Shown here piece after piece: positions 8,401 to 62,900 of a stretch of 64,000 nt of DNA. Made by a program: the position numbers and the translations under genes. Under the pieces are notes generated by a model. That model was given only the letters and a program-made list of their open reading frames with translations. It was not told where the DNA came from and searched no databases. The DNA comes from a virus: positions 18,611 through 82,610 of the IMG/VR virus record IMGVR_UViG_3300036770_004568, one strand, 5' to 3'. The number at the start of each line of letters is the position of its first letter. Positions within the stretch are counted from its first letter, which is position 1.

Positions 8401-9053
8401 AGAAGAATATTGAACTGATTGCCTTTGATGCACTGGGCAATCCTTATGGGTATCTGGCTGGTGAGCTCAGTGGCGTGGTGAACTGGGTGCTGTCGATGAG
8501 TGAGGAGGAGATGCTGGAGTACACCAAGAACGCCACAAACCATATCAAGGTTCTCAAAGAGCAGAAGGCTGAGTTGCTGTCTGAATCCAACACTCTGATC
8601 GACTGGATGCAGGAGCGGATCGTCTTTGATCCCAATGCCGCAACGGCGGTGGGTCACAAGCAAGACGCTGAGGCGGGTCAGTTCTCCGTGCGCAATGCCG
8701 AGAGCTGGTTGTATGCCTCTTATGTCGATGCCTGCCGCAAAGCCAATGTTCGCGAAGTCGGGCGCCCCAGGTTTGTCCGGTTGCTGGAGGACATCTGCAT
8801 CAACCAGCTGCGGGTCAAGGTGCTGAAGATCAAGGGCAAGAGGACCCGTCACATCTTCAAGGGTTTGGCAATTCGCAAGGCTGATTCGTTCTATGACGGA
8901 TTCCCATCGATTGTGGACTATGCGTTCAATGCGGACAAGTGGGAGTATCTGTATGGTTCACAAGAGACCATTGAAGAGCAGTTGAAGCAAGACCTGGTGC
9001 TGGAGCATCAACCGTCCCAACTCAGTTCGGGAATCCCTGATTTACCGTTCTGA
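5487..9053 (+). CDS. primase-helicase (prim-pol, PriCT-2, D5-like SF3 helicase) containing an intein
   Basis: N-terminal WVDVDG prim-pol motif; 'DYDTWIMVGQALHS' PriCT-2; 'FKNGVLD' D5_N; Walker A GAAGAGK|T split by the intein; 'LKALTGGDQI'. Confidence 0.9.
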   Translation: MEKRESLKKTLNPGEIKLEWIPKNWPLTPLGAYKNAYIQDWQSNPFSIEEIRTEISQGRCKGVGVLGGPCFNERFGLVWVDVDGQSVQSKIEELSHLPYAEALPDTLTICSGRVGRERRLYKVLAEDFEIFVRNKYSWQTDTPGEKLEILWSNLQGVVMGLHPETSGFYTPDGLGFEWATDLPLIPSWLKDVITSKNARMGGAAKRVTRVEGPGFAFSLIQDSSRDRAMAVEAMWSLPSELADDYDTWIMVGQALHSVDDELLEQWDAWSQQSEKYQPGLCERKWASFNAGSGVGLGTLIELSKRVSNVVYERLERENASLPEDDDLDQIEKIRLEQMMMLEGVVEQTIENTTELHHIHEVLEEVVDVVNDFAGQNLVVDESSLDTDSPEPSLPSLKRNPPVNIMRDMILFKMAGSILYDPTQESYYRYSHRSEGVWGKLSSFEMNSIIQNYLDEMHLPKGYSSGTVQSLMDLLGPRLGQVEWNNKPNLLCFKNGVLDTETMTLMPHSRDFYMVTQLPFDYDPSADCPRTKQWIAYTQFNNEEMVKVLQAWLRAVLLGRHQLQMFLELIGAAGAGKAQPNDARILTPDGWRHLDSIKVGDHVIAADGNPSLVMGIYPQGRKEIFSVVFDDGSVAECCNEHLWQIYIGDNRNHYIWTLGQIQEYLKKCPDARISIPLCQPVQFPVQQIQAEPYAYAREVIDLMNSGSESNKIHCIPIQYRLNTISVRLHFLQGLMDLAGSTREDGMCVFECKEEYFASDLASIIRSLGGKVWVRPQKSRSKKNPVVTYRLEFFLHPMFAPFRLNDEKLVEWRKAYNGFAHTKVIDKITFSRYSEARCIYINNPAHLYITDHFVVTHNTSFSNLCVALVGTENTFSTRLSLLESNRFEVSGAYQKKLIVIADSERYGGSVDTLKALTGGDQIRSEQKFQRQASSFVYTGMLVLTANESLQTTDPSSGLFRRRLTVPFSRSRAGQKNIELIAFDALGNPYGYLAGELSGVVNWVLSMSEEEMLEYTKNATNHIKVLKEQKAELLSESNTLIDWMQERIVFDPNAATAVGHKQDAEAGQFSVRNAESWLYASYVDACRKANVREVGRPRFVRLLEDICINQLRVKVLKIKGKRTRHIFKGLAIRKADSFYDGFPSIVDYAFNADKWEYLYGSQETIEEQLKQDLVLEHQPSQLSSGIPDLPF
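7215..8054 (+). mobile_element. intein (280 aa, Ala1, class 3 WCT signature) with a degenerate LAGLIDADG domain
   Basis: Starts AQPNDARILTPDG and ends FVVTHN followed by Thr+1; removing it restores GAGKT; EHLW, ARCIYI and VTHN supply W, C and T. Confidence 0.9.
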
Positions 9054-20592: not shown

Positions 20593-22052
20593 TTGACTAC
20601 TCCCTGCGCTAAAGCACAAGGATTCTCATAAGAGATTTCAACGATCATGATATTGTGGTAATAACCACAGCCTCATGCGTTGGGGCGAAGTCAAAGCGCC
20701 CCTAGCTGGTTTGCATTGCATTCCAGGTACATTGGCTTTACGACCAATGTTGTAAGCACCATTGCAGTCAGCATTGATGACTTCACCATTGGCGGCTTTG
20801 TAGAGACCACGAGTAATACGTCGTCCTGATGGTTTCCAACACTCGGGTTTTTCACCGTATACGGGAATCACATCAAGATCTAAGGCTGATGCCTTAGACG
20901 TATAACTTTCTTCCTGCTCAATGAACAGGATCCCATAGAGCTCACAAAGCTCCATGACTCGTCGTTTAAGACGAGCCGTGGGAATCTGTACAAACTTCTG
21001 GTTGTTTTTCTTGCCTAGATTAACAGACTGCTTTTGTCCTTTGTTCCAGCCAAACACAACTGTGCCAATCTTATGATCAAGACAGTATTGAATCACTAGT
21101 CGGGCTGCTTTGTTGACAGCGTCACGCATTTGACGGTTACGTTTAGTTGTGACACGATCAAGCAACTTAGACCAAGATCCATGAGGTTTAGACTCCTTGA
21201 GAATACTGACGCGTTTGTTGTACCACTGATTCAGTGATTTCAGATGCCTACCATCAATGATGAATGAATGACCCATGGTTGATGCACAGGTCAACCAGTT
21301 ATCAATGCCATGATCAATTGCTAATGCATGTGATTGATCAAGATCTAGTGCAGATTGCTGTGCAGACTTACTGATCCATACTGCATCAAAGTAATCAGCC
21401 CGTGGGACAATTTGTAGTTCGCGGATACTGTCCCAATTTAGATTGGATGGGAAAGGAATGTAAATTTCTGGAAGTCCAAACCAGACTTTGCAATAGCGTC
21501 CGAGAGGAACTCGGACTTGGTTGTTTGTTAGCTTGAGCCAACGCTTAGGATAAATAACTTGGTACATACCGCCTGACTTACGGTATTTTGGCAGCTTAGG
21601 TTCATCAGGAAGCTGTCCTGTCTTCCATAGTTTTTCTAAAGCTCTATACGATTTAAATGATTCACCAACGCTGATACAAGTCTGTTGTGCAGAACTATTG
21701 AAGACAGACTTCATGTGAATATTGTCTTTCATCAATGTTGAAAGACGCTGTCCATTTGTAATTTGTGCAAGCGTTAGCTGACGTTTATTAGGTTTTGACT
21801 TAAAGTAAAGCTGTCTAGCAAGATAAACAGTACAGTTATACAGCTTATTGGATTCGCTGCATAAATATTGCAATACCGCCTTCAGTGACGGGTCACAGGG
21901 CAGCCGGTTGATCTGAGCGACGTATTGCTGAGCCATGGCACCAGTATACTAGGCATAGCAGGCATGACGTCAGCTAAAAAGTCTCAGATACTAGGCTACT
22001 GAAGCGCTTTTCCTCCCCGCCCTAAAGATCGGGGCTACCAAGCTCAACTTAA
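20593..22052 (-). mobile_element. IS200/IS605-family (IS1341-like, tnpB only) element; left end approximate
   Basis: Right end on minus strand gaatccttgtgctttagcgcagggagtagTCAA (ends at 20593); left-end hairpin ccccgatctttagggcgggg near 22015-22034; no tnpA; more AT-rich than the flanks. Confidence 0.8.
20638..21936 (-). CDS. tnpB: RNA-guided endonuclease TnpB
   Basis: SNKLYN, RuvC-I AIDHG, QEESYTSK, RuvC-III INADCNGAYNI. Confidence 0.92.
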   Translation of the reverse strand: MAQQYVAQINRLPCDPSLKAVLQYLCSESNKLYNCTVYLARQLYFKSKPNKRQLTLAQITNGQRLSTLMKDNIHMKSVFNSSAQQTCISVGESFKSYRALEKLWKTGQLPDEPKLPKYRKSGGMYQVIYPKRWLKLTNNQVRVPLGRYCKVWFGLPEIYIPFPSNLNWDSIRELQIVPRADYFDAVWISKSAQQSALDLDQSHALAIDHGIDNWLTCASTMGHSFIIDGRHLKSLNQWYNKRVSILKESKPHGSWSKLLDRVTTKRNRQMRDAVNKAARLVIQYCLDHKIGTVVFGWNKGQKQSVNLGKKNNQKFVQIPTARLKRRVMELCELYGILFIEQEESYTSKASALDLDVIPVYGEKPECWKPSGRRITRGLYKAANGEVINADCNGAYNIGRKANVPGMQCKPARGALTSPQRMRLWLLPQYHDR

Positions 22053-22918
22053 TCAGGTGTAGTGTGGTAGCTTGGTAAAGGCCTATCGAATGAAAAAGTT
22101 TTCCACAGGTTTATGGCTTGTCTCAGTGAGACTCGGTGAGATTAGGGGCTCTAAGTCAAACTCATAACGAGTATGAGTTGGGAATGGTAGCAATGTGATA
22201 CAAAAATAAGGGTGAGAAAACGAAGGACTTTGGAAAGGCGCTACATTGGTACGTGTAGTCAGCTGCGTAGTAGTGCGTAGAAATGGGGTAATTATGGTAG
22301 CAACGGTAACAAAGTGGTACTGAATTAATCAAAGTTGTTGTTCGTCTTGGATTGATAAGTACAGCTTGTGGATGTTACGTGAGACCGAAAAACGGTATCA
22401 CTGCGATACGGAAAAGGCCTCGGACCAGGGGTGTTTTGGTATCGCATTGATACAGAGCTGGGACGAGGAGTTTACAGTCTCAGATGAGACTCATAGTGGT
22501 AACGGATAAAAACGACAAAAATCGACTGAACGAGTGATTTCATTTGGTCTACCTAAAATATGGCAAAGTGTTCTTTCGCATGCGTGGTGGTGGCCAAGGG
22601 GGGTAGGGGGTTCAGGGCGTACCCCGGCAGGAACACTTTGCCACATTTCTGGGGAACTAATTAAAATTCCGTTCCGGTTGTTTTTCGTCGTTTTTTTTCG
22701 CGATGACCCCTGTTTTGGTATAGCTGTGTTACATTCAGGCCCTCAAACCTGTATCAACCACTACAAAAATCACTACAGCACTACACGTACTCAGTCGCCG
22801 TTGAGTGCATGTACTCGTGTATTTCAGCACTGCTGATGCCTTAGTACTTGTACTCAACACCCTATATTTCTACTTTTCCAAAAGCTTGCTAGCATTTAGT
22901 GACCAGTCACTAGGAGCA

Positions 22919-23566
22919 ATGGCCAGGACACTCAAGGGTGCCGATCATCGCAGGGGGAAGATCGAAGAGTTCTTGACGATGGTCTGTCTTCCAGACAGGA
23001 TTGACCGTTTTACCTACAAGGGTTATCCCTGTCCGAAAGGTCACATGCTTCGGCATCGCCACCATCACTGGTGTGTTCAGTGCGTTTCCAATATTGTCAA
23101 CAACAAATGCGGTATGGATGTCAATCTCACTGACATCTCTCATGCATCGTTCTATAGTCACTTTTTTCAGTGCGTTCAACCGCCACGCGGCTTTGATGAA
23201 TGCTGGCTGATGTCAGAAGACTTTCTGGCCATTAAAGACCGCAACTATCCACGACTGACGGCACTGACCTATCGCACAGGACTGGCAGGTGTTAGCAACA
23301 CCATCTCACTCACAAAGTTTGTCTATAACTACTTCTGGGGTGACGTAGGTGCATTGGTAGTTACTAGGACATGCAAGAACCCTGCCTGTTGGAATCCACT
23401 GCACATGAAGTCATGCTTCAACATGGCCAAGAGTCCAACATCAGTTGATCCTTTGCAGCTCAAGTATGACTCTGTCAAGAACATGCTCAATCACATGAAG
23501 CCGCGTTCTTTTGAGAGCGAAAAAGTTTTGTCTCCCGATCTTGCTGCTCGTCTTGCTGGACTCTGA
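22919..23566 (+). CDS. Zn-binding protein with a degenerate HNH/His-Cys-like domain
   Basis: AGGAG before ATG 22919; CPKGH...HHWCVQC; DECW; TRTCKNPACWNPLHM. Confidence 0.7.
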   Translation: MARTLKGADHRRGKIEEFLTMVCLPDRIDRFTYKGYPCPKGHMLRHRHHHWCVQCVSNIVNNKCGMDVNLTDISHASFYSHFFQCVQPPRGFDECWLMSEDFLAIKDRNYPRLTALTYRTGLAGVSNTISLTKFVYNYFWGDVGALVVTRTCKNPACWNPLHMKSCFNMAKSPTSVDPLQLKYDSVKNMLNHMKPRSFESEKVLSPDLAARLAGL

Positions 23567-23568
23567 TC

Positions 23569-24273
23569 ATGCCACGCGTTAAGTACACGGACAATCTGCA
23601 TCTCTCTACAATTCAGCATCTGCACATTGCAATTCTCAAGCCTGATCTGATTGACGAGTTGTTCTATGTCGGCCAGGTCTGTCCCCTTGGTCATCGCTAC
23701 CGCCATAGGCAACTGCACTGGTGTTTGAACTGCGGACTCAAGGCCTATGGCAACCGGCCTCAAGCGGACCTCAACATGGTGGTCAAGGAGCACCGCACGT
23801 ACTTCATGAACGTGTTTGCGAACCTCCCCACGGATCAGCCCCTCGATCAATGCTGGGAGCTGCCTGAGGGCGTCCGCAAGCCCGGCAAGATGCAGCACTA
23901 CTCCTATCTGACCTACCGCACCCCTCAGCTTAAGCGGGCCGTCTCTGTGCCCCTACCACGGCTGGTGTATTCCCTGTTCTGGGGCGAGGTGGGTGCCGTC
24001 ACGGTTGTCTCGACGTGCAACAACCCGATCTGCTGGAATCCCTTGCATGTACGCAGCCGCTTCAATGTCAAACCCACGCCCAAGGAGCTGGGGCAAATCA
24101 TCTTGACCCCTGATCCATGGCGAGTGATGCAGTTTGAGAAACGCCCCATGACCTTGGAGAAGGAACGCTCTCCATCCATTGCGATCATCAAACCACCCGT
24201 GATGAACAAGGAGGTTGAGCCCGGATCACCATTCCGTCCCCTGGAAAGCCAATACATCCCTAAATTAGAATAG
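23569..24273 (+). CDS. tandem paralogue of 22919-23566
   Basis: CPLGH...HWCLNC; DQCW; FWGEVG; VSTCNNPICWNPLHV. Confidence 0.75.
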   Translation: MPRVKYTDNLHLSTIQHLHIAILKPDLIDELFYVGQVCPLGHRYRHRQLHWCLNCGLKAYGNRPQADLNMVVKEHRTYFMNVFANLPTDQPLDQCWELPEGVRKPGKMQHYSYLTYRTPQLKRAVSVPLPRLVYSLFWGEVGAVTVVSTCNNPICWNPLHVRSRFNVKPTPKELGQIILTPDPWRVMQFEKRPMTLEKERSPSIAIIKPPVMNKEVEPGSPFRPLESQYIPKLE

Positions 24274-24293: not shown

Positions 24294-25058
24294 ATGACAC
24301 AACGTAGCCGCAGTTACCACGATCCCCTGGACCTCGGTCTTTATGATCGAACATCCATTCGCTACATCAAGGGTCGGATTGGTGCTGAGAACAAAGGGCA
24401 GACGGCATTTCGCTGTACCAATGACGGTGCTTCCAATGCTTTTCAGAACGTCTGGTTCAAGGTGACGATCACGGACCCCGGCTATCTCATCTTTCTCAAG
24501 GATGACAACAGGGATAAGCGATTTTATTCCGTCAATGTCTATACGGCTGATTCTGAGCGGCGTCAATTGGCCTACCCCATGCTCACCGGTGATGTCTGTA
24601 GGAAGTTCGATAACATGGTAGCTGGCTTCTCATCGGATCTCTACAACATCTCTGATCAACGCCCAGAGTTAAGGGACCGGAACCGCACATCCCTATTTCC
24701 CTTGCCCAAGGGTTCCTATGTCATCAACATCTCGACCCAGCGCTGGGACATGTTTCGTTATGGCGTCTACATGATTCTGGAGATGCCCACGCAGACCGGC
24801 TATCTGGAACTGGAAACTGAGACCAACAGCATGCGTGAGTTTGCTTTGCAAGAAGCCACAACCCAAAATGTTCCAAAGTTCTTCTTGCTTGAGGATGCTG
24901 TGGTGGGTGTTCTGCAGCCGGTGCGGGAGCGCAGTGACCATGACGAGCGGGAATTGCGTGGTGCTTGGCGCGAGTCGTTTAAGGATGTGCCTTTCCCGAA
25001 GGAGATTCAAGATTACATTCGTGCCACCCAAGTTCCCGCTTCAGCTTGTTTCAACTGA
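24294..25058 (+). CDS. hypothetical protein
   Basis: 254 aa ORF with TAGAAT 22 nt upstream. Confidence 0.7.
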   Translation: MTQRSRSYHDPLDLGLYDRTSIRYIKGRIGAENKGQTAFRCTNDGASNAFQNVWFKVTITDPGYLIFLKDDNRDKRFYSVNVYTADSERRQLAYPMLTGDVCRKFDNMVAGFSSDLYNISDQRPELRDRNRTSLFPLPKGSYVINISTQRWDMFRYGVYMILEMPTQTGYLELETETNSMREFALQEATTQNVPKFFLLEDAVVGVLQPVRERSDHDERELRGAWRESFKDVPFPKEIQDYIRATQVPASACFN

Positions 25059-25066
25059 TTGACCAT

Positions 25067-25075
25067 TGCTATACT
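25067..25075 (+). promoter_or_regulatory. extended -10 promoter for the tRNA cluster
   Basis: TGcTATACT ends 5 nt before the first tRNA-like gene. Confidence 0.5.
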
Positions 25076-25080
25076 TGATA

Positions 25081-25162
25081 AGCGGAGTGGAGAAGTAGGA
25101 TCTCGGGGACAACTAGATCACATCGGTCCCAGTCGCTGGTGCAAATCCAGCCTCCGCGTCCA
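25081..25162 (+). ncRNA. tRNA-like RNA (initiator-type body) with a 15-nt anticodon loop
   Basis: Acceptor GCGGAG/CTCCGC with A1:G72 mismatch; D stem GAGA/TCTC; stem GGGAC/GTCCC closing loop AACTAGATCACATCG; T arm GCTGG-TGCAAAT-CCAGC; encoded CCA. Confidence 0.75.
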
Positions 25163-25167
25163 ATCAA

Positions 25168-25239
25168 CCAGATGTAGGTCAGCGGTAGACGGCTTGCTTT
25201 GGGAGCAAGAGGACGTTGGTTCGATCCCAACCATCTGGA
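25168..25239 (+). tRNA. tRNA-Pro(TGG)
   Basis: Acceptor CCAGATG/CATCTGG; anticodon arm CTTGC-TTTGGGA-GCAAG; TTCGATC T loop. Confidence 0.93.
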
Positions 25240-25258
25240 TTCGATAGACTTTAGGGAT

Positions 25259-25331
25259 GCCGGATTAGCTCAGTGGTAGCAGCGCTACTCTTGTAAAGTA
25301 GATGTCATCGGTTCGAATCCGATATCCGGCT
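25259..25331 (+). tRNA. tRNA-Thr(TGT)
   Basis: Acceptor GCCGGAT/ATCCGGC; anticodon arm CTACT-CTTGTAA-AGTAG; TTCGAAT T loop. Confidence 0.93.
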
Positions 25332-25353
25332 TGCAGCTCCAATACATGCTTAC

Positions 25354-25878
25354 ATGTCCCTCTACCTAACATCCGATCTGCATTTTGGTCACAGCAAGGT
25401 CCTGGAGTTCACTGGACCGGATGGTCAGCGCATCCGTCCGTTTGCATCGGTAGAGGAGATGCATGAGGTGATCATCGAGAACTACAACAAGGTGGTTAAA
25501 CCCCAAGACACGTGTTACATCTTGGGTGATGTCGCCATTCCCAGATCTGGTCTTCAGCAGCTTGCAAGACTCAATGGTCGCAAGATTCTGATCCACGGCA
25601 ATCACGACACCTACAAGACACAAGATTATCTCAAGTACTTTGATCAGATTCGTGGTGTCGGCTTTAAAGATCGCATTTTCTTCACTCATATCCCTGTGCA
25701 CCCTGACACGTTCAGGGGCGGATCCATTCGTGGCAATGTGCACGGCCACTTGCACATCCATCGGGTAATAGATGGGGATGTCCTCGATCCACGCTATTTC
25801 AGCGTGTGTCTGGAGGTGAATGACTTTACGCCCGTGTCATGGGATGTGGTCCGCCAGCACTTTGGCTTGGATGAGTAG
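25354..25878 (+). CDS. calcineurin-like metallophosphoesterase
   Basis: SDLHFGH, LGD, GNHD, THIP, HGHLH. Confidence 0.9.
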   Translation: MSLYLTSDLHFGHSKVLEFTGPDGQRIRPFASVEEMHEVIIENYNKVVKPQDTCYILGDVAIPRSGLQQLARLNGRKILIHGNHDTYKTQDYLKYFDQIRGVGFKDRIFFTHIPVHPDTFRGGSIRGNVHGHLHIHRVIDGDVLDPRYFSVCLEVNDFTPVSWDVVRQHFGLDE

Positions 25879-25931
25879 TCCAAAGCTAAAACTAGTATCC
25901 ATTAGAATGGTTGCAAGGTAATTGAAGCGCG

Positions 25932-50069: not shown

Positions 50070-50459
50070 CTACGCGGCCATGTTATCCTCCATTCTATCA
50101 TCGTCAATGGCTATTAAAGATTTGAGTTGATTCCACTGCAGCGTGGTCAACTCAATGTCCATCCAAGCCTTGATCCGGTTCTCTTTCTCCAGGCTCCAAA
50201 ATTCTTGCCTCTGGAACCACTGAATCCAATCCTCACTGCCTTTCTTGTGGTTGCACTGGCAAGCTGGGACGAGGTTCGAGCGGACTGTACGACCACCCTT
50301 GAATTTGGGAATGATGTGATCTAGTGAGTGCGCGTCTCGACCGCAATAGGCACACTTATGATCCCATGAACTGTAGATGTTCTGTCTGAATAGCTGTTTA
50401 GCTTTCTTCGGATGAACTGCAACAAGTAGGGCAAGAGGTTCATGGACATCCTCAAACAT
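50070..50459 (-). CDS. HNH endonuclease
   Basis: CAYCG...SLDHIIPKFKGG...NLVPAC.CNHKKG. Confidence 0.9.
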   Translation of the reverse strand: MFEDVHEPLALLVAVHPKKAKQLFRQNIYSSWDHKCAYCGRDAHSLDHIIPKFKGGRTVRSNLVPACQCNHKKGSEDWIQWFQRQEFWSLEKENRIKAWMDIELTTLQWNQLKSLIAIDDDRMEDNMAA

Positions 50460-50931: not shown

Positions 50932-52158
50932 CTAGGCCGGGGGCTTTGTTTTGTGCACGGCTTCTGCTTCTTGATACGCCTTCATCAATTGCTCTTGCTT
51001 GACATCCTCACCAATCCATTTGCGATAGGTGTTCATGTGTACGTCAACAGTATGTCCCATCATCACAGCAGAGATGGAGAAGTCCACATGGAACCGCATC
51101 AACCGCAACGCATAGGCATGTCTGAGGTCATAAGGGCGAAAACCAATCTCAAGCCTGCGAAAGCCATGGGCAATCTGCTGCACAAACTTTCCCCCTGGTC
51201 GTACTCCTAGTTCATTGACTGGGATTTCGATGCTCCCATTGCGCAGCGCAAAGAGATCCACCCAGTCCCTGTGGAAGGCGTAGACGTTCTCCCGTGCTCC
51301 ATAGAGTGCATCGGTTTTGTGCTTGAGTACATTGATCGTGCTATCTCCATTCCACTCAAACCACAACACTTCGTGGGGTCTGAGCCCATAGGCTGCCATC
51401 ATCCCATAGGTCCACAGCACGGTTCTCCAATACTTCTGATCACGATTCTTGACATCAACCATCGCTTTAATTCTGGACCACGTCTTGACAATCACGTCAT
51501 CTGAAGGCGGTTTTCTGAGCTGCCCACTGGTGCGCACGGTCTTGGTTTCAATGTCCGTGGTGTCCAGGGCTACGCCATTGACCTTGGCCAGGTAGCGACA
51601 GACGTAGAGGGTCTTGTTGCGGTGCAGGGTTCCTGGTGTCTTGCTCATGATCAATGTCCTCAACATCTCTGCTGTCAGCAGTTCGTGTTCCGGCAGTTGT
51701 TTGTAAAGGATCATGTAATTGGAGTTCCAGCTATGGAGCTTCTTTCTGTCTTTCCTATCTCTGGTTTTGAAATAGTCTTTCTCTGCTCGCGCAATGGCTT
51801 CTTGCACCGTCACCCCAATCCGCTTGCTGCTGCGGATCAGGGACGCTGGGACGGAGCCGTAGCTTGACCAGTCAAAGCAGTTGCTTTGGATGGCTGCGGC
51901 AATAGCTCTGAGTTTCTTCTCAGCCTCCATCACCCCCACCTTGGTGCAGGGCAATCCCAGGTCCAGCCGTTGCCGGTAGGGCTGCTGCATGGCAGAGTCG
52001 GGCTTCGGGGGCAACAGACCCCTGAGGATCAAGCGCTCATTGCGTTCCTCTAAATACAGACCAAGCCCTTGGACCCGGTACTTCTTGTTTCGGCGTAGTA
52101 ATTCGGCTTTGATGTCAAACACCATGTCTGGTCCAGCGACGGAGCACCCCAGGACCAA
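50932..52158 (-). CDS. tyrosine recombinase/integrase, XisA-like (likely start ATG 52125)
   Basis: LRGLLPPKP N-domain; catalytic YGLRPHE, K, YDLRHAYA, MGH...TY. Confidence 0.9.
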   Translation of the reverse strand: MVLGCSVAGPDMVFDIKAELLRRNKKYRVQGLGLYLEERNERLILRGLLPPKPDSAMQQPYRQRLDLGLPCTKVGVMEAEKKLRAIAAAIQSNCFDWSSYGSVPASLIRSSKRIGVTVQEAIARAEKDYFKTRDRKDRKKLHSWNSNYMILYKQLPEHELLTAEMLRTLIMSKTPGTLHRNKTLYVCRYLAKVNGVALDTTDIETKTVRTSGQLRKPPSDDVIVKTWSRIKAMVDVKNRDQKYWRTVLWTYGMMAAYGLRPHEVLWFEWNGDSTINVLKHKTDALYGARENVYAFHRDWVDLFALRNGSIEIPVNELGVRPGGKFVQQIAHGFRRLEIGFRPYDLRHAYALRLMRFHVDFSISAVMMGHTVDVHMNTYRKWIGEDVKQEQLMKAYQEAEAVHKTKPPA

Positions 52159-59955: not shown

Positions 59956-62900
59956 TCAAGAAAGAACCCGGCCGTCCTTGACAAAGCTATACGCACAGGT
60001 GATGAAATCCTTATTCAGGCATTCAAAACCGGCGTAAAGTTGCCAGATGAGAATAATCGCCCTGCTGAAGTCGTCATTATTATTGATGAGGACTTGAGCG
60101 TTCGGACCACCGATACCCACACCAATTGCCTGAGGACCAAAGAAGTAACCTTGGGCAACTTCCTCAGCGACGGCAGAACCAGACTCAAGCTTAGCTTGAA
60201 CAGTTTTAGTCGGGTAGTTTGTTGATTCGAAGAATTTGACGCCCTCAAAGATCACGCCAGTAGGCATAACGGGTTCACCAGCCAGGAAATAAGCCTGACC
60301 AGCTTGAGGACCCATGTAGAATGAAGCGTTATTGGGCATTGCAGGGTTGCCCATATACATGCCCTGTCCAGGATTGCCAGCGTAGCGTGCAATCTCACGG
60401 AAGTCCGGATCCCTGCGGAGGTGCATCATGAAGGTGGGATCAACAATGGCCCGATACAGACCATCAGCATAAGTAGGCACATTGCGCTTACGCATCGACT
60501 TAACGATGTTCAGCAGGTCAGTGCGCACTTGGAATTGGTGCAGGCCAAGAGAAAAGGCAGCAGTTGCACCACCACTTCCGTAGTAGTCGAGGCTGGTCTC
60601 TTCTTTACCCATGGGGTAGTAGTAGCCACCTTGAGAATCGCCAGCAGGACCACGAGCGTGGGCTTTGGCTAGTTCATCAAGGAAAATACGATCCAAACAT
60701 GTTTCTCCAGGGCTTTTAACCCCTGGCTCTATAGCTTTACCATGGCTATAGTTCAGGCTATATCACGATCTAGATGGTCTAGATCCCCGGCACTCGTGGG
60801 AGAAGTGACTGACCGGACTGGTCTTGTCTCCTAGTCGTTGCACCTTCTAGTTAATTCCTTAACTAGCTTGGCTCAGGATTCCCCTTGGTTTGGCGGGGTT
60901 CCCTGAATTCACCGGGTTATTGCCCACTATTCACATAGTGGCGGCGCAATTGTATTTACGCCAGCGGCGATAGTCCGTGTATTCCGCTTAGGTTTCCCTA
61001 GGGACTGACTATATCTTCACCCTATGAATAGGGTGCAGGACGCTCATGCCTGTAATCAGGTAGTCGATGCACTGTCTAGAATCAGTGTTCTAGCTTAGCT
61101 CAGTGTTGCCATAGGTTTCGCCAAACCCTTAGGTTTCACTGAATTCATCCTGTTATTCACTAGACATTTACATGTCTAGGCGACAACTATTTTATCGAGC
61201 AGAGTGAGGCTACCGATGGACTGGTGAAACTGATTCAGGTTACCAGTATCGAGCAGCATCCGTTGCGCGGTGACTAGAGTCTCCCGAGCAATTTTGAAGC
61301 TTGAAGGCTGAGTCGGATCGGTCGGATCAGCAGGGCCGGTATCAATTGTGTTATCCCAAGGGTGTTGATCCCTTGGCTCTATGGTTTTACCATTACCATA
61401 GTTCAGACTATATCATCACCCGTCCCAGGGGGATTGGGTGCGAGGCACTCGTGACGCAATTGTGATTTCTCTGTTTTTATTTGAGTTATACAATCTGATC
61501 ACGTCAGACACTTTTTCTGTCCGACTTAAATCAGTCTTGTATTTGAGAGAAGGAAGTACATACTCATCAATGGAAGACAAAAGCATTTTAAGCTGTTTAG
61601 TATTCCACTTTAAATAGAACTTACCTGTTTTATGACAAACTTTTGTGTAAGTGGATCCTGTTAAATCATGGATCCATGAACCAACAATATCAGTTGTTGG
61701 TTCATCTTCACAAACAGCCAACCATCCCACTCTTTCAATCTTTACTGAACCACTCGGCTTAATTCTTTTGCGAACTTCCAGTGAACCATCATCCATCCAA
61801 AATAGAGCAAGCTCTTTAAGACCAAGATTCTGAAGAACTTCGACGCTAAGAGTCTTTTTGCCTTGTGGATACAGCAGGTTGTAAATGGGGGTTAAAAATT
61901 TCTTACTTGTTACACCAAAGCGCACAGCAGGGTAAATACCTTTGTCTTTGAAGTATTTCAATTGTGCGTGTGTACCCAAGATACTGTTTAACTGCTCTAG
62001 TTGCCATTGAGCGTACTCAACATGAGCATACTGACGCTGGATGTGCAGAGTCGTTGATTCAGATCTTTTTGATTTGGAAATACAACCATCTCCGATGGCA
62101 CATCCAATAAGAAATTTTTGCTGTTCAATGTTTATCATAAAACCATCTAGCGTTAGTCGTTGAACCTTCCGTGTCCTTAAAACGGCTTGGCTGCTGATTC
62201 CCCAATAGGATAGCAAAAAATCCTCTGGAGGGGTTCCAGCAATTCACCTCGTTATCGACGCAGATTACGCTGCGAAGGAGCTACCAATTAACTCTTTGAG
62301 CACCACCAGGACTTTCTCCTTGGTGATGTTACGGCTGCTAGCAGATCCAATGGTTTGATCAGGAAGACGCTCACGGCTTTCTTTAGTACCGGGCGAGCTC
62401 CAGAACTTATAGCGGTCAAGCTGCACTGTTTGGCCAGGCTGACGGGTGAAGTCGTGGACGACACTTGGTATTCCCGTCTGGCATTGATAAGCTGCTTAGA
62501 CGGTACTCACGGGTTTTCTATCCCCATGTCCAGACTATATCATATTCCCAGGACTGTTTCTGTTTCTCAAATCTTGCCTGATGAAGTTGAACACTACGCA
62601 TCAAGAATGTCGGACAAAGATGCGGCGATTGCTATTGGAATCTCTTATGTCTCTTTTTGGAAGTTAAGAAACAAATACAACATCAAATCTTTCTTTGAAA
62701 GAACAGGTCTCAGGAAGGACAAATCTACTGGAAAGCTTTTTCGTTTTTACCAATACAATGAGCGCTATTTCTCGTCAATTGATTCTACGGACAAAGCATA
62801 TTTCCTCGGACTACTAGCGTCTGATGGAAATATCTCCCCTCGTCTTACTGCTTGTCGGATTGCTCTTAAGCACTCAGACGCAGATATCCTTGATCACTTT

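Follow-up and report, generated by a model that had tools for sequence, protein, structure and literature searches.

Phage-encoded transfer RNAs (tRNAs) have been proposed to counter host defences that cleave tRNA, among them VapC, which targets tRNA-fMet (van den Berg et al., 2023, PMC10264068; see also PMC7824862). The element considered here is an RNA gene with the shape of an initiator tRNA, located at positions 25081–25162 of a window of 64,000 bases, i.e., bases 18611–82610 of the 82,610-base IMG/VR virus record IMGVR_UViG_3300036770_004568 (CheckV completeness 47%). It is probably a working tRNA mimic rather than a dead gene, and we give about even chances to the more specific reading that it is a conserved, selected and non-decoding mimic of initiator tRNA at the head of a tRNA operon. 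Like the phage tRNAs of van den Berg et al. (2023), whose anticodon-loop substitutions have been put forward as an escape from anticodon nucleases of the host, the element has its deviation from the norm concentrated in the anticodon loop. Those tRNAs, however, have a loop of 7 nucleotides (nt) and still decode, whereas the element is predicted not to, which would leave it a role as decoy only and none as replacement.

Some other RNAs of phages and bacteria may be compared with the element. T4 RNA C and RNA D are described as stable phage RNAs of small size, distinct from tRNAs and of unknown function (PMC9697503). They resemble the element by kind only, the comparison being one of descriptions and not of sequence or structure. 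Both are longer than the element, reportedly lie in the tRNA region of T4 and are said to have tRNA-like ends, and we know of no derivation of either from an initiator tRNA. The account of tRNA-Other, a pseudo-tRNA of Bacillus cereus, presents an RNA that is tRNA-shaped and outside translation, as the element would be, and that has a cellular effect (PMC3399842). It is chromosomal and of other ancestry, whereas the element is phage-borne. We know of no enlarged loop in tRNA-Other. YrlA and related bacterial Y RNAs, a tRNA mimic also present in some phages, are described as a tRNA-like domain joined to a stem that binds Ro60 (PMC4201824). The element differs in that its 82 nt hold no additional Ro60-binding helix, and no Y-RNA family of Rfam matched within 24900–25400. 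In open-access papers and bioRxiv, no description was found of a phage RNA that derives from initiator tRNA and has an enlarged, conserved anticodon loop.

The element and the box in front of it are composed as follows:

25081–25162, plus strand: initiator-tRNA-shaped RNA gene, 82 nt including an encoded CCA, from the minimum-energy cloverleaf and the family covariance model
25067–25075, plus strand: extended −10-like box TGcTATACT, recognised by eye, ending 5 nt before position 1
25081–25087 with 25152–25158, plus strand: acceptor stem, six standard pairs and A1·G72
25081–25087, plus strand: 5′ strand of the acceptor stem, with A1 (25081) opposite G72 (25158) and unpaired; G2–C71 and C3–G70 are present
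25090–25104, plus strand: D arm, stem 25090–25093/25101–25104 of four pairs, 7-nt loop with GG
25106–25130, plus strand: anticodon arm, stem GGGAC/GTCCC (25106–25110 with 25126–25130) of five pairs
25111–25125, plus strand: anticodon loop AACTAGATCACATCG, 15 nt
Variable region of the element: 4 nt
25135–25151, plus strand: T arm, stem 25135–25139/25147–25151 of five pairs, loop TGCAAAT with G at position 55
25159–25162, plus strand: discriminator T73 (25159) and encoded CCA (25160–25162)

All 20 standard stem pairs are intact and the minimum-energy fold of 25081–25162 is the cloverleaf (ViennaRNA). The perfect pairing of the D, anticodon and T stems, pointed out in a preliminary description of the window, was confirmed by reading the sequence, as was the mismatch at 1:72 that it had likened to initiator tRNAs (A1·G72). 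The D stem also contains an A11:U24 pair (A25091 with T25103). The preliminary description further reported an encoded CCA, which is present, the neighbouring tRNA-Pro and tRNA-Thr being followed by TTC and TGC instead. Its account of the loop stands as well, i.e., 15 nt, 8 nt over the normal length, without U33 and with CTA followed by CAT: CTA is found at 25113–25115 and CAT at 25121–25123, and A occupies position 33 when the count starts on the 5′ side. ARAGORN, a check proposed at the time, called no tRNA at 25081–25162, and the element was unmatched by Rfam RF00005 both at the gathering score (threshold 29 bits) and at E-values up to 10.

The origin of the element can be traced through its arms. 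Its 17-nt T arm recurs in many IMG/VR contigs, and many of these recurrences are tRNA-Met(CAT) genes that share the D arm. A family pattern, consisting of the D arm GAGAAG.AG.A.CTC and the T loop TGCAAAT with a gap of 26–40 nt between them, was searched in IMG/VR and matched 68 stretches, in every one of which the gap was 26–27 nt, i.e., of normal arm length. These represent 49 distinct sequences besides the window's own; 48 members were aligned, and the sequence of the element was left out of the model built from the alignment. The D arm belonged to the search pattern and is therefore bound to be invariant across the family, as is its A11:U24 pair, found in 48/48 members. CAT, A37 and a 7-nt loop were found in all members (48/48), and at least 90% of them have T33. 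The family cloverleaf is supported by covariation, with 92.5% of cells paired (0/500 shuffles as high) and two-sided changes at all five pairs of the anticodon stem. Pair 30:40 is G–C in 42 of the 48, C–G in four, G–U in one and unpaired in one, and never A–U. Among viral members, CCA is encoded in 24/46 and T73 is found in 3/46.

We assign this family, on its sequence features, to the initiator type, because 1:72 is unpaired in 42/48 members and because a C1·A72 mismatch, which is the bacterial initiator signature, occurs in 11 of 24 distinct family copies from bacterial genome records. An unpaired 1:72 is known as an initiator feature from the E. coli literature, and so is A11:U24 in the D stem. 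The family is found in phages and in Patescibacteria: the pattern matched 31 bacterial genome records (L182–L212), 15 of which are metagenome-assembled genomes of Patescibacteria. Initiator-type tRNAs with G55 (T loop TGCAAAT) are thus present in those 31 records; to our knowledge U55 is otherwise nearly universal in tRNAs.

When the 48-member covariance model was applied to the element, the score was 60 bits (E 1.5e-13), with model positions 1–74 all matched and the loop taken as a 15-nt replacement. The element was the top match of the family model in 82.7 kb searched unfiltered, where tRNA-Thr scored 46 bits and tRNA-Pro 35.5 bits. The gene order Met-Pro(tgg)-Thr(tgt) is also found in L127, and Met-Thr(tgt) in L145. 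These matches of the T and D arms, the 60-bit score and the gene order shared with L127 place the element by descent in the initiator-type tRNA(CAU) family. With that family it has in common the acceptor, D and T arms, the 1:72 mismatch, A11:U24, A44 and C48, a CCA that is often encoded, a −10-like hexamer located 5 nt upstream of position 1 and a place ahead of tRNA-Pro and tRNA-Thr. It departs from the family in the loop (15 nt instead of 7, with A33, C37 and G38 where the family has U/C33, A37 and A/C38), in pair 30:40 (A–U instead of G–C) and in a variable region of 4 instead of 5 nt, and its T73 is rare in the family. The derivation from initiator tRNA(CAU), the register of CAT and the exchange of G30:C40 for A30–U40 go beyond the preliminary description.

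That register is counted from the 3′ side. Between CAT at 25121–25123 and the stem there are 2 nt, as in the family, and the 8 extra nt of the loop therefore lie on the 5′ side. The surroundings of CAT are changed, as the base before it is A (U or C in the family), the base after it is C (A in 48/48 family members) and the next is G. It had been suggested that the RNA could be a precursor with a tiny removable insert. This does not hold, because all eight possible contiguous 8-nt excisions keep A at position 33, so that none restores U33, and six of the eight also keep C at 37. In the Rfam search no group I intron or other family beyond the two tRNAs reached a meaningful score near the element (24900–25400), group I matches being confined to 60729–61203; a bulge-helix-bulge was judged by eye only. 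The CTA in the loop was likewise considered as an amber anticodon, and an amber suppressor is implausible since TAG is an ordinary stop codon here, ending 16 of 43 large open reading frames (ORFs) of the contig; A33 also precedes CTA. Three G–C pairs at 29–31:39–41 of the anticodon stem are a feature of bacterial initiator tRNAs. The element has G29–C41, A30–U40 and C31–G39, i.e., the G–C pair is missing at 30:40, where the G30:C40 hallmark of the family has been replaced on both sides. Its body, 1:72 and A11:U24 are those of an initiator, and its loop and G–C pairs are not; it would therefore be no initiator in function. In view of the 15-nt loop with A33 and C37, of TAG as a normal stop and of the rejection by tRNA finders, the element is predicted to be unable to decode as initiator, suppressor or spliced precursor.

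Whether such an RNA is decaying can be judged from related strains. Four of the six runs matched by a run search, all six of DNA and from two studies, were compared (X1, X3, X5 and X6; X3 belongs to study P1 and X5 to the independent study P2), by means of Logan contigs, which hide rare variants. X5 comprises two lineages that differ from the window on either side of the element. Upstream, one contig has 55 differences in the 372 nt of 24687–25058 and the other four in 147 nt; downstream, one has 52 differences and 7 gaps in the 757 nt of 25144–25900 and the other 49 differences and 9 gaps in the 395 nt of 25144–25538. Both lineages have the spacer 25059–25065 replaced (five changes) and a 3-nt deletion at 25163. 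Between these changes contig 21 of X5 covers 25066–25163, from the −10 box to CCA, with 0 differences and at a depth of 296, which is about the sum of both lineages. The unchanged block starts 1–2 bases before the TG of TGcTATACT and stops at CCA, and its flanks diverge by about 7–15%. At a flank divergence of about 9%, roughly 7–8 changes per 82 nt would be expected in each diverged lineage, and none was observed. A true tRNA nearby was less constant: between strains (X1 and X3) tRNA-Thr is substituted at 25264, 25268, 25273, 25274 and 25283 and has a deletion at 25280, the changes including a double change from G10–C25 to A10–U25.

In X1, contig 3 (24906–25207) has six differences, all within 25055–25065. 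In X3, contig 9 is identical to the window over 24600–25207, and contig 10, at equal depth, has 47 differences from 25181 on, which suggests mosaic strains with a recombination switch inside tRNA-Pro. Contig 26 of X6 (24869–25210) has 31 differences and 4 gaps, and none of the seven differences that are listed falls in the element; as depth is full across 25084–25127 (it is four positions lower in 25128–25171), the loop is not shortened in X6. Close relatives with a normal 7-nt loop, named beforehand as the finding that would speak for a recent pseudogene, were looked for and the opposite was found, X1, X3 and X5 being identical in the element; the 7-nt CAT loop is limited to distant members of the family (48/48). 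Since everything from the −10 box through CCA is unchanged while the flanks have diverged, the comparison suggests purifying selection on the putative transcription unit, and the earlier view that the element is not in simple decay is upheld. Outside these strains, the proposed BLASTn check against phage genomes found the long-loop element in none: no phage in INPHARED had it, and the best hits of a 92-nt query were chance matches of 31 nt and matches of the T arm to other tRNAs.

The block begins with the box TGcTATACT, which had been described as an extended −10 promoter with the element first behind it. The box is present by eye, and a scan for two-hexamer consensus promoters within 24800–25500 found none, hence no matching −35, so that promoter activity is no more than plausible. 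In the family a TANNNT hexamer ends at this 5-nt offset in 9 of 46 distinct viral members; the 39 other offsets have 0–3 each. Given how far a −10 box usually lies from its start, transcription would begin at the mature 5′ end or no more than about 2 nt from it. No terminator-like sites were found in 24800–25500, and the element, tRNA-Pro and tRNA-Thr are presumably on one transcript. The genes that follow are:

25168–25239, plus strand: tRNA-Pro(tgg), called by ARAGORN and Rfam, after a 5-nt spacer from the element; followed by TTC, no CCA
25259–25331, plus strand: tRNA-Thr(tgt), called by ARAGORN and Rfam, after a 19-nt spacer from tRNA-Pro; followed by TGC, no CCA
25354–25878: metallophosphoesterase (phrog_547; Pfam Metallophos), immediately 3′ of the tRNAs

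Homologues of the phosphoesterase sit amid tRNA genes in L121, L122, L156 and L132, and the enzyme may be one that heals RNA ends. When it was used as query, a single related locus was found (L002), distant at 31% identity. Upstream of the element lies a conserved ORF (24294–25058) with nine homologues (P0002–P0010) at 37–69% identity; neither this ORF as query nor an alignment of its 10 homologues found a related locus in IMG/VR. An ARAGORN call within it ('tRNA-???', 24946–25042, with a 4-base anticodon) is likely false, as it lies inside a conserved gene. Another ORF (25059–25247, 62 amino acids) overlaps the element and was rejected as coding, since its TTG start at 25059 is altered in other strains and both the 3-nt deletion and tRNA-Pro fall inside it. 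A reading of the element as attP was also rejected; the integrase gene is 26 kb away (50932–52158) and the element has a whole tRNA shape, not a mere 3′ half. The record as a whole encodes tail proteins, a ribonucleotide reductase, a glycosyltransferase and lysozymes, and its protein matches to known phages are distant (about 31–38% identity, to the tail proteins of phages of Synechococcus, Rhodobacter and others). Elsewhere in the record there are tRNA-Leu(tag), tRNA-Gly(tcc) and tRNA-Ser(tga), and no ordinary tRNA-Met was found. Two adjacent Rfam group I intron matches, of 77.1 and 54.5 bits, are present at 60729–61203 on the minus strand.

The loop has one counterpart in the contig. Loop positions 25112–25124, i.e., 13 of its 15 letters, recur exactly at 50313–50325 on the plus strand, inside an HNH gene that is encoded on the minus strand (50070–50459; Pfam HNH and HNH_5), where they belong to the codons that specify L-D-H-I in its active-site motif. 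A match of this length was reached by 9 of 2000 shuffled loops, counting either strand of the whole contig, and no further loop match of at least 10 nt was found in 82.6 kb. The match has the same sense as the HNH mRNA, so that the loop is identical to it and not complementary, and the mRNA is therefore no antisense target. The identity could be due to chance, to a templated repair patch or to a shared binding site.

The reading of the element as a selected mimic has to be weighed against four others. It is quite possible, if somewhat on the unlikely side, that the element is a young pseudogene, i.e., an initiator tRNA gene disabled by an insertion in its loop and not yet decayed, which would look conserved since the block is recent or hitch-hikes with a promoter and two working tRNAs. 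The following results weigh against a selected mimic or in favour of a young pseudogene. The 33-nt gap of the element was present in 0/68 IMG/VR matches, i.e., the enlarged arm is absent there, and a long-loop relative was also absent from JGI metagenomes (two matches, neither related) and GTDB genomes (0 matches). As the only enlarged arm of its family in these three collections, the long-loop form is, judged by its distribution, young or rare. Broken or odd initiator-type copies exist in other phages, such as the truncated acceptor of L180 and the long loops of L213 and L216 (see below). Few haplotypes cover the element: X3 is identical to the window for 600 nt upstream as well and so is not independent, X1 departs from the window only in the short spacer, and substitutions inside the element are possible in X6, whose differences there are only partly listed. 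The strains recombine within the tRNA cluster, as seen in X3, and a recently exchanged block could mimic selection among such mosaics. The fold energy of the element is unremarkable (z = −1.19; 25 of 200 shuffles were equally stable). No partner gene is evident in the contig either, Pfam RNA_ligase and RtcB being unmatched in the 82.6-kb, 47%-complete record; RNA_lig_T4_1 also had no match in the record, and for PF09511 the blank is uninformative as its control matched nowhere. On the other hand, a single event does not account for the loop, which departs from that of the family by 8 extra nt and by A for U33, C for A37 and G for A38; none of the stem pairs is broken, and one has been changed on both sides. 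The identity in X5 stops exactly at the −10 box and at CCA, with spacers 1–7 nt away replaced or deleted, and the five substitutions and one deletion of the true tRNA-Thr between X1 and X3 compare with none in the element.

The remaining readings concern what the loop itself would do. It could pair with a phage or host RNA, the element then being a base-pairing regulator for which the tRNA body provides stability and processing. That the sequence of the loop, and not just its length, is constant between strains would agree with this, and so would the recurrence of 13 of its letters in the HNH gene, a match equalled by few shuffles; however, the test of that match was post hoc, the match is sense to the HNH mRNA, the strand complementary to the loop is found only within a block of minus-strand genes that gives no indication of transcription from the plus strand, and there is no second match of at least 10 nt in the contig. 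We consider such a regulator improbable. Even less probable is a scar or immunity allele at the level of DNA, in which the loop was rebuilt after a break by a homing-type nuclease, maybe with a patch from the HNH gene; in its altered form the site would shield the genome from that nuclease, and the RNA would have no role. Mobile nuclease genes are numerous in the contig, i.e., the HNH gene, the group I introns and a TnpB-like ORF (20638–21936), and it also holds two putative nuclease-like paralogues without Pfam match (22805–24273), and the 13-nt identity with the HNH gene would fit a patch. T4 SegB is said to cut inside a cluster of tRNA genes, and the DNA of the anticodon arm is reportedly the target of a cyanobacterial endonuclease from a tRNA-fMet intron. 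Cleavage at the element by a nuclease is nevertheless a supposition, and the gene between the nuclease-like genes and the element is just 85% identical in X5, which speaks against recent co-conversion; a scar would also account for the loop but not for the conservation, as a unit with all pairs intact, of the stretch from promoter to CCA. Finally, the element could be an unusual tRNA that decodes with an expanded loop, as an initiator or a suppressor. CAT is kept in its ancestral 3′ register and is also found in the loops of L213 and L216, and the acceptor-stem features used for formylation are intact. Known decoding tRNAs with enlarged loops have loops of 8–9 nt; that of the element is 8 nt over length, with A33 and C37 in place of the nearly invariant U33 and the invariant A37, G30:C40 is lost and TAG is a normal stop, so that decoding is extremely improbable.

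If the element is a selected mimic of initiator tRNA, the version that we tentatively favour is a decoy, which would lure away or competitively inhibit a host factor by which the anticodon arm of initiator tRNA is attacked or bound. This version takes about half of the probability of a mimic and is thus rather doubtful overall. A decoy or inhibitor of anticodon nucleases and a regulator of translation had already been put forward as possibilities in the preliminary description. Transcription of the element would start from its own −10 box, making it the first RNA of the tRNA operon, and a cut by RNase P in front of tRNA-Pro would release it with its encoded CCA as the end. The acceptor, D and T parts would still resemble initiator tRNA to those host factors that read them. 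Such readers are RNase P, the formyltransferase (1:72, 2:71, 3:70 and A11:U24) and tRNA-directed nucleases. The enlarged and conserved loop would bar the RNA from the ribosome's P site and offer a specific surface for contact, and the mimic could thereby occupy a factor that normally reads initiator tRNA, e.g., a VapC-type tRNase in abortive infection. A nuclease decoy is the most concrete version of a mimic, because a role against tRNases, including VapC and its action on tRNA-fMet, has been proposed for phage tRNAs in the accounts available (PMC10264068; PMC7824862).

Similar RNAs may exist in other phages. A search of IMG/VR for a canonical initiator D arm and T loop separated by an over-long gap gave eight stretches, two of which have intact bodies with enlarged anticodon loops: L213 (1882–1962, plus strand; loop of 12 nt) and L216 (3682–3760, minus strand; loop of 10 nt). 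Both bodies are of the initiator type, both loops still contain CAT and both are called 'tRNA-???' by ARAGORN. In L213, CAT is in the 3′ register and preceded by A, as in the element of the window, and L213 was the sole match when the motif CACAT.G together with the T arm was used as pattern. It is tempting to speculate that phages repeatedly make a non-decoding decoy out of an initiator tRNA gene of their own, and that the element, L213 and L216 belong to one undescribed class, although we consider this unlikely at present. If true, the class would consist of anti-defence or translation-control RNAs, in which the body attracts a host factor and a rebuilt, sequence-specific loop traps or blocks it. 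The factors baited in this way would be VapC-type tRNases, other effectors of abortive infection, or the machinery of formylation and initiation.

Further tRNA-like RNAs were seen in the course of these searches. L180 carries at 8867–8920, between two tRNA-Met genes, a degenerate copy of the family that lacks a matching 5′ acceptor strand. L017 (8523–8629, 107 nt) and L078 (6370–6475, 106 nt) hold tRNA-like RNAs with an acceptor of 7 base pairs and the same T arm; they adjoin or lie within phage tRNA clusters and ARAGORN calls neither. L053 has an 86-nt tRNA-Met(CAT) at 1772–1857 whose D arm is poorly paired, whose variable arm is long and whose 3′ end is that of the element; the contig of L053 and the window have a lysozyme-like match in common.

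The tRNA clusters of phages are usually read as codon supplements or as substitutes for cleaved host tRNAs, and odd members are dismissed as pseudogenes. The element described here keeps every stem, the acceptor features of an initiator, a candidate promoter and CCA though it is predicted not to decode, and it is the same in diverged strains. As a young pseudogene it would be nothing out of the ordinary. If it is functional, phages would use the shape of initiator tRNA itself as a tool, and a single 82-nt gene would provide a handle on the host factors that read initiator tRNA off the ribosome.

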